Positions 6,076 through 30,917 of a stretch of DNA of 35,394 nt are shown here, in pieces; position 1 is the first letter of the stretch, and each line of letters starts with the position of its first letter. Source of the DNA: a virus (Duplodnaviria > Heunggongvirae > Uroviricota > Caudoviricetes); IMG/VR virus record IMGVR_UViG_2711768013_000020; one strand, given 5' to 3'. The notes below the pieces were generated by a model that saw nothing but the letters and a program-made list of their open reading frames with translations, had not been told where the DNA came from and did no database searches. A program made the position numbers and the translations under genes.

Positions 6076-9000
6076 TACCGATATGCTCCACTTAACCGAC
6101 CACCATCACGGGCCTGCTGTTGCATAAAGTCCGCTGCCGCTTTTTTCCCAAGGTCATAAACCACCTTCAGGGCAGCCGGACCTATCTGCCCGTTCGTGCC
6201 ATCGTTATTGATCTCGATGTTGTACTGCGGGGCAAACATCGCCATACCTGAACCACCAATATCCGCCACAACCCCCAGCTTACCGTCAGCACCACGACGC
6301 AGTGGCAGAATGGCTTCAGGTCCCGCTTCCCCCATCACACCCGCGCCTTTTGCAAAAGCAAAAAACGTCGGACGGTTAACCACCGTGCCACTGTAACGAC
6401 TCAAATCAGCAGACTGATAAATCCCCCCATTGGCATTCAGGGAAAGGCTGCTGAGATCAAATCCCAGTACACTGCCAATCCCTTTTATCGATTTCATCAT
6501 GGTTGCCTGCGCCAGGATTTTCGCCATATCTGACAGCACAGAAGAGGTGAAGGATTTGAAATTGAGTTTGCCGGTAGTGACAAAAGTTGCCAGGCCATTT
6601 CCCATGTTGCTGAAGGCTGACGAGAACACCTGTTCTGCTGTTCCTGCCGTATTATCTGCATCCACGGTAAAATCCTGAAATGCACGCAGGACTCCGTTTT
6701 TCCAGTTACCCTGCACAACTTCAAGCTGTTGCCAGTAACGGCGATTCTCATTCAGTTGTCGGTTCAGGCTCTCCGTCAGCGCCTGCTCGGCCTTTCTGTA
6801 GTCATCCGTGTTATATGTTCCTTTCTGCTCACTATCCCGCCTCAACTGCTCCAGCTGTTGCTGGTATTTCTGGCGAAGACTCAGTTGTACCTGATATCGC
6901 TGCCGCTGCTGATCACCCATACCCACCGTGGCGATATCCAGGTCATGTTGCTGACGCTGAGCGCGCTCTTCTTCAGCCAGTTGACTGGTCAGCTGAATTG
7001 TTTTTTTCTTCAGCTCGTTGAGTGCCGTCTGTTTCTGAAGCTCCTGCTGTTTTACATCCAGCAGCGTCAGTGCCTGAATCAGTTCATCTTTACGGGCCAG
7101 CACACTCTTTTCATCTGCCGTCAGTTTTTTCCCGTCCAGGTCGCTGATGCGCTGCTGCAGAGCCAGAAGCTGTTTATGCGCTTCTGTCATCCTTTCCGTG
7201 GCAATGCCTGCTGACTGTCTGGCAGCAGCAATCTGTCCTTCCACCTGTGCCTGTTGCTGACTGTACTGCAGCAATAACCGGGTGGCCTCATCATTACGGG
7301 GTTCGCGTGTTTTTTTCTTACCGGATGCCAGGGCTTTCTCGTAACGTTCATTTTCACGTTGTATCGCCGCATCCCTGACAGCCTGATCGGCGTACTGCAT
7401 GGAATTAATACGCGCAATTTCACGCTGATGTCGTGCTGCTTCCGTTTCATTCATCCGGTTCAGTGCAGCATTTTCAGCATTACGGCGTTTCTGTTGCTCC
7501 TGATAATTCCGCTCTGCCTGCTCTTTTGCATCCTGCAAATCCTTCTGGCGTTTTTTCTCCTGAAGCTCGTTAAGACGCTGCTGATCGTACTCAACCTGAG
7601 AAGATGATGCCGTCCAGGGGAGTCTTTTCGCCCGCGACACTTTCTCCTGTAAAGCGGAAATCTGTTCATCCAGCGAGTCTTCACGACCAATATTCATGGC
7701 CGCATCCCAGAAACGACTCCATAAATCAGACAGATACTTCAGCGTACTGCCCAGCGCATTGAGGTTATTATCAATATCCGCAGTACGCCGACCGGTTTCC
7801 TCTGCCAGTGCAGACATGGCTATCCGTGCCGCATCACTGGACCGCCCCTGTTCCCCAAGGACGCGTATCTGCTCAAGCTGAGTGGCAGTAAGAAAATGCA
7901 GCTCATTGTCCAGAGCCTTCGCGGCATTTACAGGATCATCCTTCAGCCGCTTAAACTGATTTATGGTATCGCTGACCGACTGGCCAACCGATCGCTCCAT
8001 CTGTGCGGCAGCTCTCGCCACCATACCGATATCGTTTCCACGAAATGCACCACTCCCCACCACCTGAGCCAGCGCACCGGCTGCAGCATGTTGCGTAATA
8101 CCATTCCCGGAAATAGCACGACTGAGCGTCCACAGCTGCCCGGCAGTGACTCCGGCATAATGCCCCGTCAGCGACAACTGGCGGTTAAATTCTTCCCCCT
8201 CCTTCTGACCGTCATACCAGGCTTTACCCAGACCATAGACAGCCGCGGCAATACCGCCAATAACCCCGCCCAGCATCATGCCTTTCGGTGACATCAGTGT
8301 GTCTATCCATCCGGCACGGTTAGCCAGCGTTATTCCGGACCCCCTCAGCGCCCCTAAATTGCCGCGGGCCAGTTCACCTATCAGAACGCCTATCTCCTGG
8401 CGGGCTGCTGCACTTTTCAGACCCAGCGAATGCGTGGCTTTTCCTGCCTGCTCCATTTTGCGGATATACACTTCTGCAGCACTGCTTACCCCCAGCTGGG
8501 CAGCCTTAGCACGAAGCAACTCAGAAGATGAAAGATTCTGGCGGGTTGCCTGCTCTTTAAGCTGACGGATAAACGCCACTTTCTGTCGGGTAGCCTCTTC
8601 CTCAGCCTGTGTAAGAACACGGGTTTTCGCCGTAACCTCAGAAATCAGCGCCAGATAATCCTGCTGACCAATCCCGCCACTGTTTCTGGCCTGTCGGATC
8701 TGCTGCTGAATACGCTGTAATTCCTGCAGCCCCGCACTGGCCTGTTTCACACTGTCAATCTGACGATAAAACGCAGCAGCCGCTTTATCCTGAGCCTCCG
8801 CCAGAGCCATGGCCTGCGCCTGTTCCTCGCGCATTTTCTGGCTCAGTGCCTCCATGCGCTGGCGGGTTTTCTCCACCTCGCGGGACATGCGTTCATGAGC
8901 CTGTGCGTTCTTCTCCACCGTCTGCGCATGGACGGATGCGGCTGTTGCAGCCGAAGAAGCCGCCTGCGTTGTCTGCCGGGCGGCCTGAGTCTGACGCTCC

Positions 9001-26016: not shown

Positions 26017-26339
26017 ACTTTCAGGCCTCTCTCATGTAACCAGTGGGTTGCACGCAGCCTGGCGTTTTCCTCACCGGCAAGCAGTGAGCGGATAATCCCG
26101 ACCGCCTCGCTGTCGTCGTCCTTCACCGCGGTATGAAGAGTGATACCCCGGGCCATGCCACGCTTTATCGTGATGACGCCTTTTTTCTCCAGTGCGCGAA
26201 GATGTTCCACCGCTGCATTCACTGAACGGTATCCCAGCATGGTTGCCACCTCCTGATTGGTTGGCGGGAAGCCACGTTCTTTCTGGTAAGAAATCAGCAT
26301 ATCCAGCACCTGCTGCTGGCATTGAGTTAACGTCGTCAT
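26013..26339 (-). CDS. LexA N-terminal DNA-binding-domain homologue lacking the S24 peptidase domain
   Basis: 108 aa; MTTLTQCQQQVLDMLISYQKERGFPPTNQEVATMLGYRSVNAAVEHLRALEKKGVITIKRGMARGITL follows the LexA N-terminal domain pattern. Confidence 0.6.
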   Translation of the reverse strand: MTTLTQCQQQVLDMLISYQKERGFPPTNQEVATMLGYRSVNAAVEHLRALEKKGVITIKRGMARGITLHTAVKDDDSEAVGIIRSLLAGEENARLRATHWLHERGLKV

Positions 26340-26989
26340 GCCGCCATCTCCCTGACCAGTTTTTCCGCCTGCTGGCGAACCTGCGCCAGAAACGCCTCAC
26401 CACATGCCTCAAGTTCATCGCGCCCGATGTAGCTGATTGCCGGTCCCTTCCAGGTCTTGTCGAAAACAGCAATAGCACCAGCGAAGAAAGCGCCTGTCGG
26501 CACCTGCTTCTCGTCCTTCGGGATAAACCAGGCAGGCAGTTCAAAACCAATACGCCCGCGAATAAAAGCAATATGATCTGCATCTTCCGGCCACCACACT
26601 TCGCTGGTGGCAGCTTTGATCAGGAAAACATAGCGTCCGCCCTTATCACGCATGGCACTGGCATGTTTCATGATGTAACGCATGCCGGTGATGTATTGCC
26701 CTTCATGCTGACTGGCGCGGCTGTACGGGGGATTACCAAAGGCAGCACCTTTAAGCTCCGCAAGACGTTCAGACCAGTCATGCGCCAGCGCGTTGTCTTC
26801 CGCAGTGTAATAAGCGGCACATTTGGCGTTATCACCATCAGTGAACAGATCCAGAACAAACGGGCCAAACAGGGTGTTAATTCCCCAGAAAATGTTATCC
26901 GGCGTGCGCCACTGATCGCCCACTTCCTTCAGTTCATGGGCTGGTTTGTTCCGCAGCTCCACCAGCGCCTGGCAATATTTATTACTCAT
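26336..26989 (-). CDS. Phage Dam-type DNA N6-adenine methyltransferase
   Basis: NPPY motif (AFGNPPYS); probable start ATG 26989 (MSNKYCQALVELRNKP). Confidence 0.8.
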   Translation of the reverse strand: MSNKYCQALVELRNKPAHELKEVGDQWRTPDNIFWGINTLFGPFVLDLFTDGDNAKCAAYYTAEDNALAHDWSERLAELKGAAFGNPPYSRASQHEGQYITGMRYIMKHASAMRDKGGRYVFLIKAATSEVWWPEDADHIAFIRGRIGFELPAWFIPKDEKQVPTGAFFAGAIAVFDKTWKGPAISYIGRDELEACGEAFLAQVRQQAEKLVREMAA

Positions 26990-27477
26990 TAAGCCCCCAC
27001 GTAATTCCCTGACAGATACCACTCTTCACCCGATGCAGCGCGCTTGCTGCTTTTCCGTAAGCACCGCTCACGACGCGCCAGAAAATTGTTTCGTTCTGGC
27101 TGGGAGTGGCTTTCACGGAATGCCGCCATCCACACCGTTGCAGCACGACGGTATAAGCCCCTGGACTCCAGTTCTTCCGCCTGGCGGGTCAGGCACAAAA
27201 TCACCCGGGGATCGTTAGTGCCGACATAGAAATTGCGCACAGGTCTGGTTTCACGAACTGGTTGTGGTTCCGGCTCCTGCGCTCTCTCAGTCAGGCGTGG
27301 GAAATGTCTGCGTGTATCTCCTTCATAACGGTGAGCCACACGCCCACTCTGACGTAACTTGCTTGCTGACTGCAGAACGCGCTGCCGTGAGTAACCTGCA
27401 AAAGCATCCGCAATGTCTCCGGAAGTACACCCCGGATGGGCTTCAATGAATTTCTGAACTTCATTCAAAAGACTCAT
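26989..27477 (-). CDS. PerC-family transcriptional regulator homologue with N-terminal extension
   Basis: C-terminal LESRGLYRRAATVWMAAF...RRERCL matches the PerC/Pch signature; start ATG 27477 with RBS GGGGGTGA. Confidence 0.55.
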   Translation of the reverse strand: MSLLNEVQKFIEAHPGCTSGDIADAFAGYSRQRVLQSASKLRQSGRVAHRYEGDTRRHFPRLTERAQEPEPQPVRETRPVRNFYVGTNDPRVILCLTRQAEELESRGLYRRAATVWMAAFRESHSQPERNNFLARRERCLRKSSKRAASGEEWYLSGNYVGA

Positions 27478-27479
27478 GA

Positions 27480-28298
27480 TCACCCCCTGAATCCTGCCGG
27501 GATCTGGCTGTAGTCCACGTTGTCGTAACTGGCTTTGAAGTACGGGTCCTCGCGTCTGGCTGCAGATACCGCAGGAACTTCCCAGAATTCTTCGAAATGA
27601 CGATCCGGACCAAAGAACGTGACAGCCTGTTTCACAAATTGTGTGCCGCTGTTACCCATCGCAGATACCCATCCCGCGTAGCGTTTCACACCTTCCAGCA
27701 TGGTTTCGGGGTTTACTCCCTCATTCAAACGGGCTTTCCAGGCTTTGAAGGCTGCAGATTTTGAATTGCCACCAGCACGTTTGGGATATGCCAGCCATGC
27801 CTGCTCAAACTCCGGAGAGTATTCCGGTCGGTTTGAACGAACTCGCACGGACTCATCAACTGATGCACCAACAGCTATTGGTTCATTGACTGGTTCTTTG
27901 ACTGGTTCAAAAGAGTGACTGGTTCTGGGTGAATCTCCTGCACTACCCCCTGGTGCAACTCCTGCACTACCTGGTGAATTTGCTGCACCAGATAGTGAAT
28001 TATTTGCACTACCCCCTAGTGAATCTCCTGCACCATCCAGATGAAGGAGATAGATATTACTTGAGTTACCTTTTTCACCTTTCCGGGTGACTTTTTTTAC
28101 CAGCCCGGACTCACAAAGGGCCGCAATATGATTCATCACAGAACGTTTGCTAATTTCGCACTGGTCAGCAATATGCTGGTAGCTGGGCCAGCACTCACCC
28201 TGATCGCTGGCATTATCAGCCAGCTTGATCAGAACCAGTTTTCGCAATGGATTACCCACTCGAATTTTCATCGCTTTAACCATCAGCTCCATACTCAT
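27480..28298 (-). CDS. Replication initiator (O-like replisome organiser: N-terminal winged HTH, Gly/Ser linker, conserved C-terminal domain)
   Basis: MSMELMVKAMKIRVGNPLRKLVLIKLADNASDQGECWPSYQHIADQCEISKRSVMNHIAALCESGLVKKV; RBS GGAGGTG; iterons inside the gene. Confidence 0.7.
   Translation of the reverse strand: MSMELMVKAMKIRVGNPLRKLVLIKLADNASDQGECWPSYQHIADQCEISKRSVMNHIAALCESGLVKKVTRKGEKGNSSNIYLLHLDGAGDSLGGSANNSLSGAANSPGSAGVAPGGSAGDSPRTSHSFEPVKEPVNEPIAVGASVDESVRVRSNRPEYSPEFEQAWLAYPKRAGGNSKSAAFKAWKARLNEGVNPETMLEGVKRYAGWVSAMGNSGTQFVKQAVTFFGPDRHFEEFWEVPAVSAARREDPYFKASYDNVDYSQIPAGFRG
27927..28038. repeat. Five tandem iteron-like repeats (20-25 bp, consensus GGTGAATCTCCTGCACTACCCCCT): candidate replication origin inside the initiator gene
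   Basis: Direct repeats read from the sequence; they encode the Gly/Ser/Ala-rich linker of the initiator. Confidence 0.6.
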
Positions 28299-28531
28299 GC
28301 TGCACCTCCGAGATGCTTCATGTTTTTTCCGGAGCGAAAGGCTATAAGCGGCATACTGACGCGGTAATTACGGCCCAGCGGTTCACAAATCACCTTCTGG
28401 CATTCACGGTCAACCAGGCTAACACGTAGAACATGCCCTGCAGGCGTGGTGTACCACTGCCCAACTGTAGGAATTGATATTTTTTTACGCTGAAGCAAAC
28501 GGCAAATATTGAGGATCAACGGATTAAGCAT
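28295..28531 (-). CDS. Hypothetical protein (78 aa), translationally coupled to the initiator
   Basis: ATG 28531 with RBS GGAGGG; stop overlaps the initiator start (ATGA). Confidence 0.4.
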   Translation of the reverse strand: MLNPLILNICRLLQRKKISIPTVGQWYTTPAGHVLRVSLVDRECQKVICEPLGRNYRVSMPLIAFRSGKNMKHLGGAA

Positions 28532-29360
28532 GACGATGCCCTCCGCTGATATTCAGGAGACGGTGAATATGAAAATTAGCCTTATCCGCCAGACGAATAC
28601 GTTCAGCTTGCAAGTTAAGAAGGGTTTCTACCAGAACCTGATGTGCCTGCGGATCCGAAAGAGTTACCTTGCGCAGAGCACGTAGTGCAGTTGTTACATA
28701 ACTGAGTTTATGTAAGTCTTCATCATTCAGACGAGTGAGGGCTGGGACAGTAGCCATGATGGCAGCCTCCTTGATCGGTGAAATACTTCCACCACCGGAA
28801 ACGCCAATTTCGCTGGTGGTGAACTGAACGGGGTTGGCGTAACCGGTGATCAAGGAAACCGGCGCATCTTTCGATGCCCCCGCCCAGCCCACCATAACTT
28901 TGATGTGAGCAAATGCGGACGATAAAAAAGACGCTGGCGCGTCATATATCGCCTTGATCAATTCCAGGACGCCAATCCCGGCACCCGCTTTATAAGGTGC
29001 CTGAACAGTGTAACGTCCCGGAATGGCAGAATCAATGTGCTGGTGGTCCTTCACACTCAACAAAATCACGCCTGAATTTCCACAAAGGACTAAAGCACTC
29101 ATGCGGGTAGTCTTTGCGAAGATAGATAACGCGCTGTGTTTCTGGCTCCCAACGAATAACATGAACATAAAGTCCTCTTCCGTCACGAAACCAGCGGTTA
29201 AGTTCCTGCACAACTCGCCCCCCACAGTCAGGTAAAGTTCTCTGTGGTTACTTACAGCCAGGTGATTTGGTAATCTGCATTCATGCCGTAACAACAGGTG
29301 TTCAGCGACGCTGACCACCAGCTGTTGCGACAAACGGTTATTTGCCGTTAAACTGTTCAT
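28524..29360 (-). CDS. Hypothetical protein (278 aa) between the cII analogue and the replication initiator
   Basis: ATG 29360 with RBS GGAGAAA, ATGA overlap with the upstream stop; Gly-rich segment SEIGVSGGGSISPIKEAA; no family recognised. Confidence 0.6.
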   Translation of the reverse strand: MNSLTANNRLSQQLVVSVAEHLLLRHECRLPNHLAVSNHRELYLTVGGELCRNLTAGFVTEEDFMFMLFVGSQKHSALSIFAKTTRMSALVLCGNSGVILLSVKDHQHIDSAIPGRYTVQAPYKAGAGIGVLELIKAIYDAPASFLSSAFAHIKVMVGWAGASKDAPVSLITGYANPVQFTTSEIGVSGGGSISPIKEAAIMATVPALTRLNDEDLHKLSYVTTALRALRKVTLSDPQAHQVLVETLLNLQAERIRLADKANFHIHRLLNISGGHRHA

Positions 29361-29920
29361 GCGTTAGTTTCTCCACAGACACAAAACGCCACGACGCCCG
29401 GAGCTGCACACTCGCGGGCGTCACTCTTTTCTGGAGCGCAAAAGATTTTGTAGACCAGTGCTGCATGCTCCTGGAGCTTCGAAATTGACAGATACAACTC
29501 ATCATTAATTGCTGTCTGCTCGTGTGGCTCCACTACCCCATCTTCGATTGCCGAACGAATCTGCTTTGAGTAACTCCCGATCTGTTCGATGACTTCCAGC
29601 AGGCGCTGGTTTATATCGGCGTTCTCTACTTCCTCAATTTCAGGAAGCGATACAAACACCCCACCAGCAGACTGTGCGACAGCATCCGCAATGTAGTGAG
29701 TGCCAGCCGCGCGCTGTAAAATCATTGCCCATCCCAGCGGGAAAATCTGATCGCCATCTGCACGAAGGCGGTTGAATAAAGCGTTCTCTGTTACATCCAG
29801 CCACTCAGCAGCTTCAGCGTAACCCCCCGGCAACGCCGCGATAGTTTTTCTGACAGCTTTCACGTACCACTCAGGCTGTTTTTCTACTTTCCAGTGATGC
29901 TTACCCACGGTTAGCCTCAT
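29357..29920 (-). CDS. YdaT-family protein, probable cII functional analogue
   Basis: 187 aa directly downstream of a YdaS-type cro; assignment by position and family resemblance. Confidence 0.55.
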   Translation of the reverse strand: MRLTVGKHHWKVEKQPEWYVKAVRKTIAALPGGYAEAAEWLDVTENALFNRLRADGDQIFPLGWAMILQRAAGTHYIADAVAQSAGGVFVSLPEIEEVENADINQRLLEVIEQIGSYSKQIRSAIEDGVVEPHEQTAINDELYLSISKLQEHAALVYKIFCAPEKSDARECAAPGVVAFCVCGETNA

Positions 29921-29951
29921 CGTTCTGTGGTTAAAAATTGAAGGTGTTCTG

Positions 29952-30153
29952 TTAATCTTTCGGATAGATATCCGGTCTTAAGTCAGATTTCGTAATTGCA
30001 CCTGACGTGCATTGCTCAAGTTTTTTAGCCAGCACAAAACTGGCTTTTTTATAACCATTGAAAACCAGCCGTAAGTAGCCTGGTGTTGAGCCAACTTTTC
30101 CGGCCAACTCACCCTGCTGTTCTTTGGTTAAAGAGTCCCAATACGCTTTCATA
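29952..30153 (-). CDS. cro: Cro-like repressor (YdaS/Cro HTH family)
   Basis: 67 aa from ATG 30153 (MKAYWDSLTKEQQGELAGKVGSTPGYLRLVFNGYKKASFVLAKKLEQCTSGAITKSDLRPDIY), RBS GGAGGT; divergent from cI. Confidence 0.8.
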
Positions 30154-30242
30154 CAATATGTACCTCCGGTATACATATTACATGATTGAGATGAACCTTC
30201 AAGATACTTGTACCTTATCGGTACAAAGGTTTTAATTTCTTT
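30154..30242. promoter_or_regulatory. Right operator/promoter region (OR, PR) between cro and cI
   Basis: 19-bp palindrome TTGTACCTTATCGGTACAA at 30208-30226; second partial palindrome ATATGTACC..GGTATACATAT; minus-strand PR candidate TTGAAG - 16 nt - TAATAT. Confidence 0.6.
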
Positions 30243-30917
30243 ATGAAAACAGTCCATGACATCCGGCGGTCTAACGCCAGAAAACTGAGAGATGGTGTTG
30301 GCGGGAATTCTTCCTTTGCCACCATGATTGATCGCGAGCCAACCCAGACCAGCAGGTTTATGGGAGATGGTGCAACTAAAAATATCGGTGACAGCATGGC
30401 ACGGCACATCGAAAAATGTTTCGACCTGCCTGTCGGATGGCTTGATCAAGAACACCAGACAACGAACATCACAAAAAAACCTGACGTTTCAATCACTAAC
30501 AAACAAATAACGTTAGTCCCTGTCATATCATGGGTACAGGCCGGAGCATGGAAAGAAGTTGGCTATTCTGAGGTTGATTTGAGCACAGCAGAAACTTATC
30601 CCTGCCCTGTACCCTGTGGCGAAATGACTTATATCTTGCGGGTGATTGGTGATTCAATGATTGATGAGTACCGCCCGGGAGACATGATTTTTGTTGATCC
30701 TGAAGTCCCTGCCTGCCACGGTGACGACGTTATTGCATTGATGCACGATACAGGCGAAACCACCTTCAAGCGGTTGATAGAAGATGGAACACAGCGTTAT
30801 CTCAAAGCATTAAACCCAAACTGGCCTGAGCCTTACATTAAGATTAACGGTAATTGCTCTATAATTGGTACAGTGATTTTCTCAGGAAAACCAAGAAGAT
30901 ACATAATAAAGGCCTAA
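30243..30917 (+). CDS. cI: CI-type prophage repressor (HTH plus S24 LexA-like autopeptidase)
   Basis: 224 aa; candidate Ala-Gly cleavage site (WVQAGAW), serine motif VIGDSM and downstream lysine (ETTFKRL); no SD upstream. Confidence 0.85.
   Translation: MKTVHDIRRSNARKLRDGVGGNSSFATMIDREPTQTSRFMGDGATKNIGDSMARHIEKCFDLPVGWLDQEHQTTNITKKPDVSITNKQITLVPVISWVQAGAWKEVGYSEVDLSTAETYPCPVPCGEMTYILRVIGDSMIDEYRPGDMIFVDPEVPACHGDDVIALMHDTGETTFKRLIEDGTQRYLKALNPNWPEPYIKINGNCSIIGTVIFSGKPRRYIIKA

Follow-up and report, generated by a model that had tools for sequence, protein, structure and literature searches.

The window analyzed here, a 35,394-nucleotide stretch of virus DNA (Duplodnaviria; Heunggongvirae; Uroviricota; Caudoviricetes; IMG/VR record IMGVR_UViG_2711768013_000020), is essentially Shigella phage SfV, with positions 27400-30000 sharing 99.1% identity with SfV and 97% with several E. 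coli phages. We found that the stretch 29360-28524, which lies between a CII/YmfL-like regulator gene and the gene of a replication initiator, is probably a P4-type RNA immunity cassette embedded in a long, "eta-like" reading frame. An earlier note had described this part of the window as two uncharacterised genes of 278 and 78 amino acids (aa) between the cII analogue and the replication initiator. The two open reading frames (ORFs) are indeed present on the minus strand, as are all genes of the finding, with Shine-Dalgarno sequences of the GGAG type ahead of both starts and with ATGA overlaps at 29357-29360 (ymfL stop and long-ORF start) and 28295-28298 (orf78 stop and rep start); their place in the early-right operon and their translational chaining had been read correctly. 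The 78-aa ORF is a genuine gene, but the 278-aa ORF resolves into an RNA cassette plus orf59 and orf77, and the stretch 29360-28295 comprises three protein-coding parts (a DUF4222 gene read in a different frame, an ORF of 77 aa nested in the long one, and the 78-aa ORF) along with two RNA elements. We hold this anatomy (the RNA elements, their targets, orf59 and the nested orf77) to be nearly certain. The elements of the cassette are as follows:

28524..29360, minus strand: long 278-codon carrier ORF (SfV orf37, "ash family protein"), corresponding by position to P4 eta
29032..29211, minus strand: orf59, gene of a DUF4222 protein in a different frame inside the long ORF, with a GTG start here and an ATG start in Stx1_14040
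29007..29035, minus strand: predicted internal sigma-70 promoter for isrK/C4, read from the sequence, the analogue of P4 PLE and Gifsy-1 PisrK
28924..29000, minus strand: isrK / P4 seqA-like RNA (Rfam isrK, RF01394; 64.2 bits, gathering cutoff 50, E = 1.1e-11)
28812..28899, minus strand: C4 / P4 CI-like antisense RNA (Rfam C4, RF01695; 82.3 bits, gathering cutoff 45, E = 6.9e-15, full-length match 1-87)
28755..28822, minus strand: downstream target region (P4 seqC / P1 a2b2 analogue), recognized by complementarity and three-way covariation
28524..28757, minus strand: orf77, nested in-frame ORF from M202 (MATVPALTR...), located where P4 has kil and P1 has icd

The Rfam scan of the window resulted in exactly two matches above the gathering cutoff, isrK and C4, both on the minus strand and both inside the 278-codon ORF. 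The isrK element consists of hairpin 1, a hairpin 2 whose loop bears target a1 (28975-28969), target b1 (28960-28952), and an intrinsic terminator (stem 28943-28930, U6 28929-28924) which a generic terminator scan finds as well; the Rfam c4-a1b1 model overlaps isrK at only 21.4 bits against a cutoff of 46.7 (E = 0.025) and is thus sub-threshold. C4 has a 17-bp closing stem and two hairpins, and carries the recognition loop b' at 28858-28847 (UUUCCUUGAUCA in SfV) and the recognition stretch a' at 28840-28834 (ACGCCAA). Both a' and b' are complementary to two sites each, a1/b1 within isrK and a2/b2 3' of C4, where an alternative hairpin (28822-28789) presents a2 (28807-28801) and where b2 (28776-28766, GAUCAAGGAGG) doubles as the Shine-Dalgarno sequence of orf77, 8 nt before its ATG at 28757-28755. 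One GenBank record annotates the isrK/C4 RNA pair as non-coding RNAs (ncRNAs), and the GenBank record of SfV labels orf37 "immunity region". As a separate observation, the read-through RNA 28740-29000 (minus strand), running from the isrK +1 to the start of orf77, folds at -113 kcal/mol (z = -5.3 against shuffles), and in its minimum-free-energy fold b2/Shine-Dalgarno is bound in cis by the region of the C4 b' loop, a pairing which resembles the "translationally inactive structure A" described for Gifsy-1.

Upstream of isrK, the predicted promoter comprises a -35 element TTGATT (29035-29030), a 17-nt spacer and a -10 element TACACT (29012-29007), with 6 nt to the +1 at 29000. The -10 positions T9, A10, A12 and T14 are invariant or nearly so in 12 diverse alleles. 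From this conservation and the homology with PisrK, we infer a weak internal promoter.

In order to evaluate the pairing scheme, 12 distinct alleles were aligned, drawn from SfV-like prophages, Shiga toxin (Stx) 1 and Stx2 phages, a P1-like Punavirus, APSE-2 and Tyrion. Across these alleles, changes in b' are accompanied by matching changes in b1 and b2, and the same holds for a', a1 and a2; the b alleles include GUUAUCGG, GCAUACGG, GUCAACGG, CAACAUAG and CACCAAAG, with others besides. The internal helices of isrK and C4 (43 pairs) were paired in 96.3% of alignment cells, with 17 of the 43 pairs compensatory and 38-46% paired when slid. Pairing of a1b1 with a'b' reached 94.6% of cells (14 of 16 pairs compensatory), and that of a'b' with a2b2 plus the alternative hairpin reached 93.0% (14 of 26 compensatory). 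For all three pairing sets, none of 500 shuffles attained the observed value, and sliding the partner gave 33-55% paired. Additionally, the duplex of b' with its own b2 averages -13.1 kcal/mol versus -5.6 kcal/mol for cross pairs, with the own target top-ranked in 11 of the 12 alleles. Taken together, the perfect covariation of the three recognition-site copies within each phage indicates ongoing selection for self-recognition. Furthermore, four b alleles were found with the same cI at an identity of at least 95%, from which it follows that the RNA specificity is a determinant independent of cI; four alleles are kept among prophages which are otherwise 98-99% identical.

The long ORF that carries these RNAs had been said to match no family. 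This does not hold, since its product matches Pfam Phage_ASH (PF10554) over residues 117-210 (67.8 bits against a cutoff of 26, E = 1.3e-18), several PHROGs labeled "transcriptional regulator", and the NCBI name "ash family protein". Among 80 near-identical prophages, 60 versions of the 278-aa product occur, the differences being concentrated at residues about 134-207. The pooled ratio of nonsynonymous to synonymous variation (pN/pS) is 1.13 for codons 1-128 and 1.25 for codons 129-210, and drops to 0.16 for codons 211-278. AlphaFold2 (AF2), run on an alignment of 126 sequences, found no structure in residues 1-210, whose predicted local distance difference test score (pLDDT) is about 40-45 overall, with values of about 25-50. 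The Ash region thus fails as a protein domain in both respects, lacking amino-acid purifying selection as well as predicted secondary structure. In a library of 1.84 billion cluster representatives, 230 proteins matched; the segment which they have in common is always Ash, at variable positions, and is fused to Rha in 22 of 75 cases. Moreover, the Ash frame is interrupted by stops in 3 of the 12 alleles (1717, APSE-2 and Tyrion) despite the conserved RNA there. RefSeq annotates the locus with the DUF4222 gene and a shortened 181-aa "ash family protein", and with no ncRNA. These results show that the Ash domain is the translation of the isrK and C4 RNA genes, and that the 278-aa ORF is not an ordinary protein gene.

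The same reading disposes of the features from which a new protein had been proposed. The Gly-rich stretch SEIGVSGGGSISPIKEAA (nt 28814-28761), which had been likened to a Rossmann-type motif, falls in the region predicted to be unstructured and is the translation of the C4 3' tail, the GGUGGUGG arm of the conserved hairpin, and the AAGGAGG Shine-Dalgarno/b2 site. For the suggestion of an anti-defence, replication-accessory or host-takeover protein we found neither a defence or nucleotide-binding family match nor a fold; the 278-aa and 78-aa products gave no helicase-loader, primase, defence or Rossmann match in Pfam, PHROGs, NCBIfam, PADLOC or the PDB sequences. What has been perceived as a hypervariable Ash domain is the switching of RNA specificity alleles and not protein evolution. 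Protein-level diversifying selection, or a target of a diversity-generating retroelement, was considered for this variability and set aside, as the variation is fully accounted for by three-way RNA complementarity; no reverse transcriptase is noted in the SfV annotation of the early region. Also rejected was the assignment of Ash as the antirepressor domain of P4 epsilon, derived from a preprint statement and from "antirepressor" annotations: in the P4 sequence (8168-8584 and 7888-8175), the epsilon derepression protein is PF25738, and PF10554 matches the ORF historically named "cI gene product (137 aa)", the match lying exactly on the C4/CI RNA.

The N-terminal half of the long ORF contains orf59 in a different frame. 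Its product matches Pfam DUF4222 (E = 9.5e-14; 51.1 bits against a cutoff of 27) and phrog_1343 (1.1e-36). Comparison of SfV with Stx1_14040 in the orf59 frame gave a pS of 0.649 and a pN of 0.094, a ratio of 0.15, versus a ratio of 1.34 in the frame of the 278-codon ORF, and the homology between the two phages begins exactly at the orf59 start codon. We conclude that orf59 is a real gene, dual-coded inside the long ORF. The 145 nt from the ymfL stop to the orf59 start (29212-29356) are covered only by the long ORF; they have no homology in Stx1_14040, whose spanning ORF begins 17 nt before orf59, and show clear coding constraint in no frame (S6/N12 in two frames). Three overlapping frames with PHROGs of their own occur here, 29023-29235 on the plus strand (phrog_14536), 29032-29211 on the minus strand (phrog_1343) and 29001-29360 on the minus strand (phrog_821/1170), with purifying selection only in the DUF4222 frame; a PHROG match in 29001-29360 reflects the ORF calling of others and not which frame is real.

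Is the long frame, then, an accident? It abuts ymfL, stays open for 201 codons ahead of M202, and shares its frame and its end with the nested orf77. An ORF spanning isrK and beginning at or beside the stop of the upstream gene was present in every operon-embedded context examined (SfV, mEp460/Stx2a_1447, Stx2c_2409, Stx1_14040 and phiP27) and in none of seven stand-alone contexts; five of the latter have 8-10 open codons upstream of the downstream ATG, and for F039 and the P1-like phage the open part begins only at an AUG inside C4. The long frame is also open across orf59 in both SfV and Stx1_14040, in which 65% of synonymous sites differ, and about 4% of synonymous shuffles of orf59 leave it open. 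The view of the 278-aa ORF as a pure artefact was accordingly softened, since the frame stays open where the cassette is operon-embedded, matching P4 eta. The long frame has probably been kept open with its amino-acid sequence unconstrained upstream of codon 202; that it serves as a track for ribosomes is a proposal to which we give slightly less than even chances.

At the end of this frame, the low pN/pS of codons 211-278 indicates purifying selection on orf77, which starts in a conserved context, KEAAIMAT (AAGGAGGCUGCCAUCAUG). In the AF2 model of the long ORF, only residues 211-272 reach a pLDDT of 86-90, with helices at 213-230 and 237-271, and orf77 is accordingly predicted to form a helical hairpin.

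The order of these elements, as obtained by sequence analysis, can be combined with what is known of P4, P1/P7 and Gifsy-1 into a regulatory scheme, each step of which is drawn by homology with those systems. In the lysogen, CI would close PR, and the weak promoter upstream of isrK would yield mostly a short IsrK-like RNA. Transcripts reading through from this internal promoter would be processed to C4 RNA, which would pair with a2/b2, mask the orf77 ribosome-binding site and stop orf77 translation; the lost translational coupling, together with Rho polarity and the isrK terminator, would leave orf78, rep and the distal early genes unexpressed. An incoming phage with the same C4 allele would be subject to this block as well, in trans. 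During lytic growth, translation of PR transcripts would begin at the upstream ATG with which the long ORF opens and which is coupled to ymfL, and ribosomes would cross isrK, the terminator, C4 and b2 directly into orf77. By this transit of ribosomes through the cassette, PR transcripts would escape both termination and C4, and rep would be expressed; abundant a1/b1 copies may in addition titrate C4. On balance, and by analogy, we favor such a logic extending down to rep. In its most extended form, which we put forward tentatively and at less than even likelihood, SfV-type lambdoid phages (including many Stx-converting phages and E. coli prophages) may possess a second, CI-independent, P4-like RNA immunity which gates replication and comes in at least four interchangeable alleles under the same cI; the long "Ash" ORF would then be purely a ribosome track, dual-coded with the DUF4222 gene, and PF10554 and thousands of "ash family protein" annotations would be translations of RNA genes.

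Several points weigh against this interpretation. The generic promoter scan found nothing at isrK, the internal site being an 8/12 consensus match where the threshold was 9/12. Among close relatives, nonsense depletion of the long frame does not reach significance (0 stops against 2.1 expected, P = 0.125). No BLASTP alignment was obtained between orf77 and either P1 Icd or P4 Kil, with only the first ~8 residues in common. The passage of PR transcripts through the isrK terminator is presumed by analogy. The published model for Gifsy-1 puts more weight on activation by IsrK than on repression by C4, and is an incomplete fit with the P4 model. Finally, what the cassette controls in most other phages is an antirepressor (Ant/Rha) and not replication genes, and the occurrence of Rha at the orf77 position in close relatives (mEp460 and Stx1_14040) means that the primary target may be Rha rather than rep.

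The last of these points leads to the alternative which survives best, namely that the cassette, as in P1 immI, controls only the adjacent downstream gene (orf77 here, a Rha-type antirepressor in mEp460-like phages), that the replication genes are independent of it, and that the SfV cassette is a relic of an antirepressor switch whose effector was replaced by a small helical protein. A Phage_pRha protein begins at the equivalent conserved ATG in mEp460, Stx2a_1447, Stx1_14040 and F039; the cassette is intergenic and directly upstream of ant in 933W/1717-type phages, phi296, Tyrion and APSE-2; and c4 of P1 controls icd-ant (Citron and Schuster, 1990). Against this, the overlaps of orf77 with orf78 (8 nt) and of orf78 with rep (ATGA) favor coupling down to rep, and five different operon-embedded contexts have the cassette immediately upstream of the replication module, among them phiP27 with a different initiator plus DnaC and DnaB. 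The same cassette, moreover, gates a replication gene in P4. We consider this alternative rather unlikely.

Far less probable is that the cassette is an inactive remnant, or mainly a decoy or defence against P4-like satellites, without regulating genes of its own phage. An anti-satellite role was raised by Barquist et al. for lambdoid prophages with IsrK-C4 (PMC3632133), but neither a remnant nor a decoy explains well why, in every phage, the three copies of a recognition site change together without exception or why four alleles are maintained in prophages otherwise 98-99% identical. The weakest explanation, by which orf37 encodes a conventional 278-aa (or, as in RefSeq, 181-aa) Ash-family regulatory or antirepressor protein and the RNA matches are coincidental or secondary, draws on the well-supported Phage_ASH match and the "transcriptional regulator" PHROGs, on 278 open codons coupled to ymfL, and on the translation in Gifsy-1 of an AUG at the M156 position (orf45; PMC4825925), but is already largely refuted here by the pN/pS of 1.25 in the Ash region and of 1.34 in an N-terminal half where another frame is constrained, by the missing AF2 fold despite 126 sequences, by an intrinsic terminator within the ORF, by an RNA complementarity that explains the variation pair by pair, by the frame stops in 1717, APSE-2 and Tyrion, and by the homologous P4 ORF being the old "cI protein", whose function is known to reside in the CI RNA.

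The P4-type cassette which we favor is set in a gene order of cro, the CII/YmfL-like gene, the 278-codon ORF, the 78-codon ORF, the replication initiator, a PerC-like gene and dam. Its immediate neighbors are:

29357..29920, minus strand: CII/YmfL-like regulator gene (SfV orf36; Pfam Phage_CP76 8.5e-15, NCBIfam YmfL 4.7e-50, pN/pS 0.13)
28295..28531, minus strand: orf78 (SfV orf38), gene of a small protein, whose start overlaps the orf77 stop by 8 nt and whose stop overlaps the rep start (ATGA)
27480..28298, minus strand: replication initiator gene (SfV orf39; phrog_270 2.4e-88, Pfam HTH_36 1.8e-11, DnaD-like C-terminal part)

The 8 nt shared by the 278-aa and 78-aa ORFs are ATGCTTAA. The product of orf78 matches phrog_1153 (4.8e-42) and belongs to a family of only 42 clusters, all from Enterobacteriaceae and all hypothetical, with 420 IMG/VR loci. 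Its pN/pS is 0.17 for residues 21-78 among close relatives and 0.41 against the 60%-identical homologue of Stx1_14040, with values above 1 in the other frames. AF2 predicted a small beta-barrel with an N-terminal helix (pLDDT 76.5), and a fold search against the PDB gave only non-significant KOW/SH3/Tudor matches, the best being an Spt5 KOW domain at E = 0.013. In SfV-like loci, mEp460, Stx2a_1447 and Stx1_14040, orf78 lies between the first ORF of the cassette and a replication protein with the same C-terminal domain. It is a real, narrowly distributed small protein, which might, as no more than a guess, serve the initiator as a coupling or adaptor protein. Descent as a DUF4222 paralogue of orf59 was considered and is not established, the hints being weak (phrog_1153 E = 0.008, BLASTP 0.014, hhalign probability 3%). 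Residues 1-20 (28472-28531) are variable (pN/pS 0.83), differ between SfV-type and mEp460-type loci, and overlap the differing C-termini of the upstream ORF; some database members (P0149 and P0159) have internal frameshift-like segments.

Within rep there are two sets of iteron-like direct repeats: a unit of roughly 20-40 nt (GTGAATCTCCTGCACTACCCCCTGGTGCAAC...) is present three times at 27929-28033, and TGACTGGTTCT likewise three times at 27887-27926. Both sets (27887-28033) lie where the Gly/Ser/Ala-rich linker of the initiator is encoded and probably form the origin, by analogy with lambda O. Directly after rep, positions 26989-27483 and 26336-27022 encode a PerC/ANR-like small regulator and a Dam-type N6-adenine methyltransferase, their ends overlapping. 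The early-right operon here encodes neither a helicase nor a helicase loader, and differs in this from Stx1_14040 and phiP27, which carry the same cassette. On the other side, a 167-aa ORF with a GTG start (29952-30455, minus strand) has a YdaS/Cro-like helix-turn-helix in its C-terminal part, extends through the operator region and into the start of cI (30243); this 167-aa form is probably spurious, the SfV annotation having only a 66-aa cro (201 nt).

The block ymfL-ORF278-orf78-rep is kept in all 80 of 80 IMG/VR loci (which were retrieved through orf78), occurs in many phage records, and is present at least in part in 1633 of 5426 complete E. coli genomes. Of the two outcomes that the earlier note had named as counting against its proposal, profile searches gave no homology to a helicase loader or primase, and the ORFs turned out to be conserved in relatives; the earlier finding is superseded rather than refuted, and what the locus presents is a problem of annotation together with a probable regulatory switch, and not a new protein. 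Four aspects seem to be under-appreciated: that the Pfam/NCBI "Ash" family is the translation of isrK/C4 RNAs, that the "Rha/Ash" genes beside cI in Stx phages contain an isrK-C4 cassette, that the SfV-like cassette precedes a replication module, as in P4, and that its specificity alleles are exchanged while cI stays the same. The "ash family protein" label sits on a region shared at least in part by about 30% of complete E. coli genomes, and PF10554 serves as the P4 "epsilon" marker in a published satellite detection scheme, but marks the CI-RNA region. The same cassette precedes the replication genes of several Stx-converting phages, where the role of "Rha/Ash" is reported to be unknown. If true, an RNA gate in these phages would bear on induction, replication and toxin output, as well as on exclusion between co-resident prophages with a common cI and different C4 alleles.

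Among known systems, P4 shares the most with the SfV locus. In P4 the PLL and PLE promoters and the nested eta-kil genes are followed by seqA, the CI RNA and seqC, and then by epsilon and alpha. Both loci carry the two Rfam families, and in identical order (isrK corresponding to seqA and C4 to CI); in both, a long ORF spans the RNAs, abuts an upstream gene and is matched by Pfam Ash, with replication genes downstream; and Kil starts at the ATG of the same EAAIMAT/Shine-Dalgarno context as orf77. In P4, transcripts of the upstream promoter are spared termination by the translation of eta (Forti et al., 1999, summarised in PMC10111431), and SfV orf37 agrees with eta in each point. P4 differs in being a satellite with AlpA upstream, whereas the cassette here belongs to a lambdoid phage with a CI/Cro switch and a CII/YmfL-like gene upstream. 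Furthermore, Kil is unrelated in sequence to orf77, a DUF4222 gene is dual-coded in the long ORF only here, and the downstream gene is the alpha primase-helicase in P4 but an O/DnaD-like initiator in SfV.

The immI region of P1/P7 is also closely related, with about 70% DNA identity between the SfV cassette and the c4-icd region of a P1-like Punavirus, an identical a/b recognition scheme in which b2 covers the Shine-Dalgarno sequence of the first downstream ORF, and specificity alleles analogous to the heteroimmunity of P1 versus P7. Unlike the SfV locus, immI of P1 stands alone as an operon and controls an antirepressor; the frame of the P1-like phage opens only at the AUG inside C4, and Icd is not homologous to orf77 beyond 8 residues.

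The Rfam isrK family was named after the Salmonella IsrK small RNA studied in Gifsy-1 (Hershko-Shalev et al., 2016), where terminator read-through and translational coupling into the next gene were shown experimentally in the same work, as was the PisrK promoter (PMC4825925). The isrK-orf45(STnc1160)-anrP locus of Gifsy-1 resembles the SfV locus in its promoter, terminator read-through, processed downstream RNA and translational coupling, and the first AUG of orf45, at +107, matches an invariant AUG at +106 here (M156), as inferred from the published coordinates. The Gifsy-1 locus differs in adjoining antQ and controlling an antirepressor-like protein, and its orf45 ends before anrP, whereas the frame here runs into orf77. 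Eru-type Stx phages likewise have "Rha/Ash" genes beside cI/cro and upstream of non-lambda replication genes, with the same Pfam domains (BMC Genomics 2022, PMC8951638); that study treats Ash as a protein domain of unknown function, whereas here the Ash part proves to be an isrK-C4 cassette lying ahead of the actual Rha or orf77 coding sequence. IsrK-C4 systems are known in P4, P1/P7, N15 and Gifsy-1 and have already been noted in lambdoid prophages, which makes the SfV locus a further member of this group.

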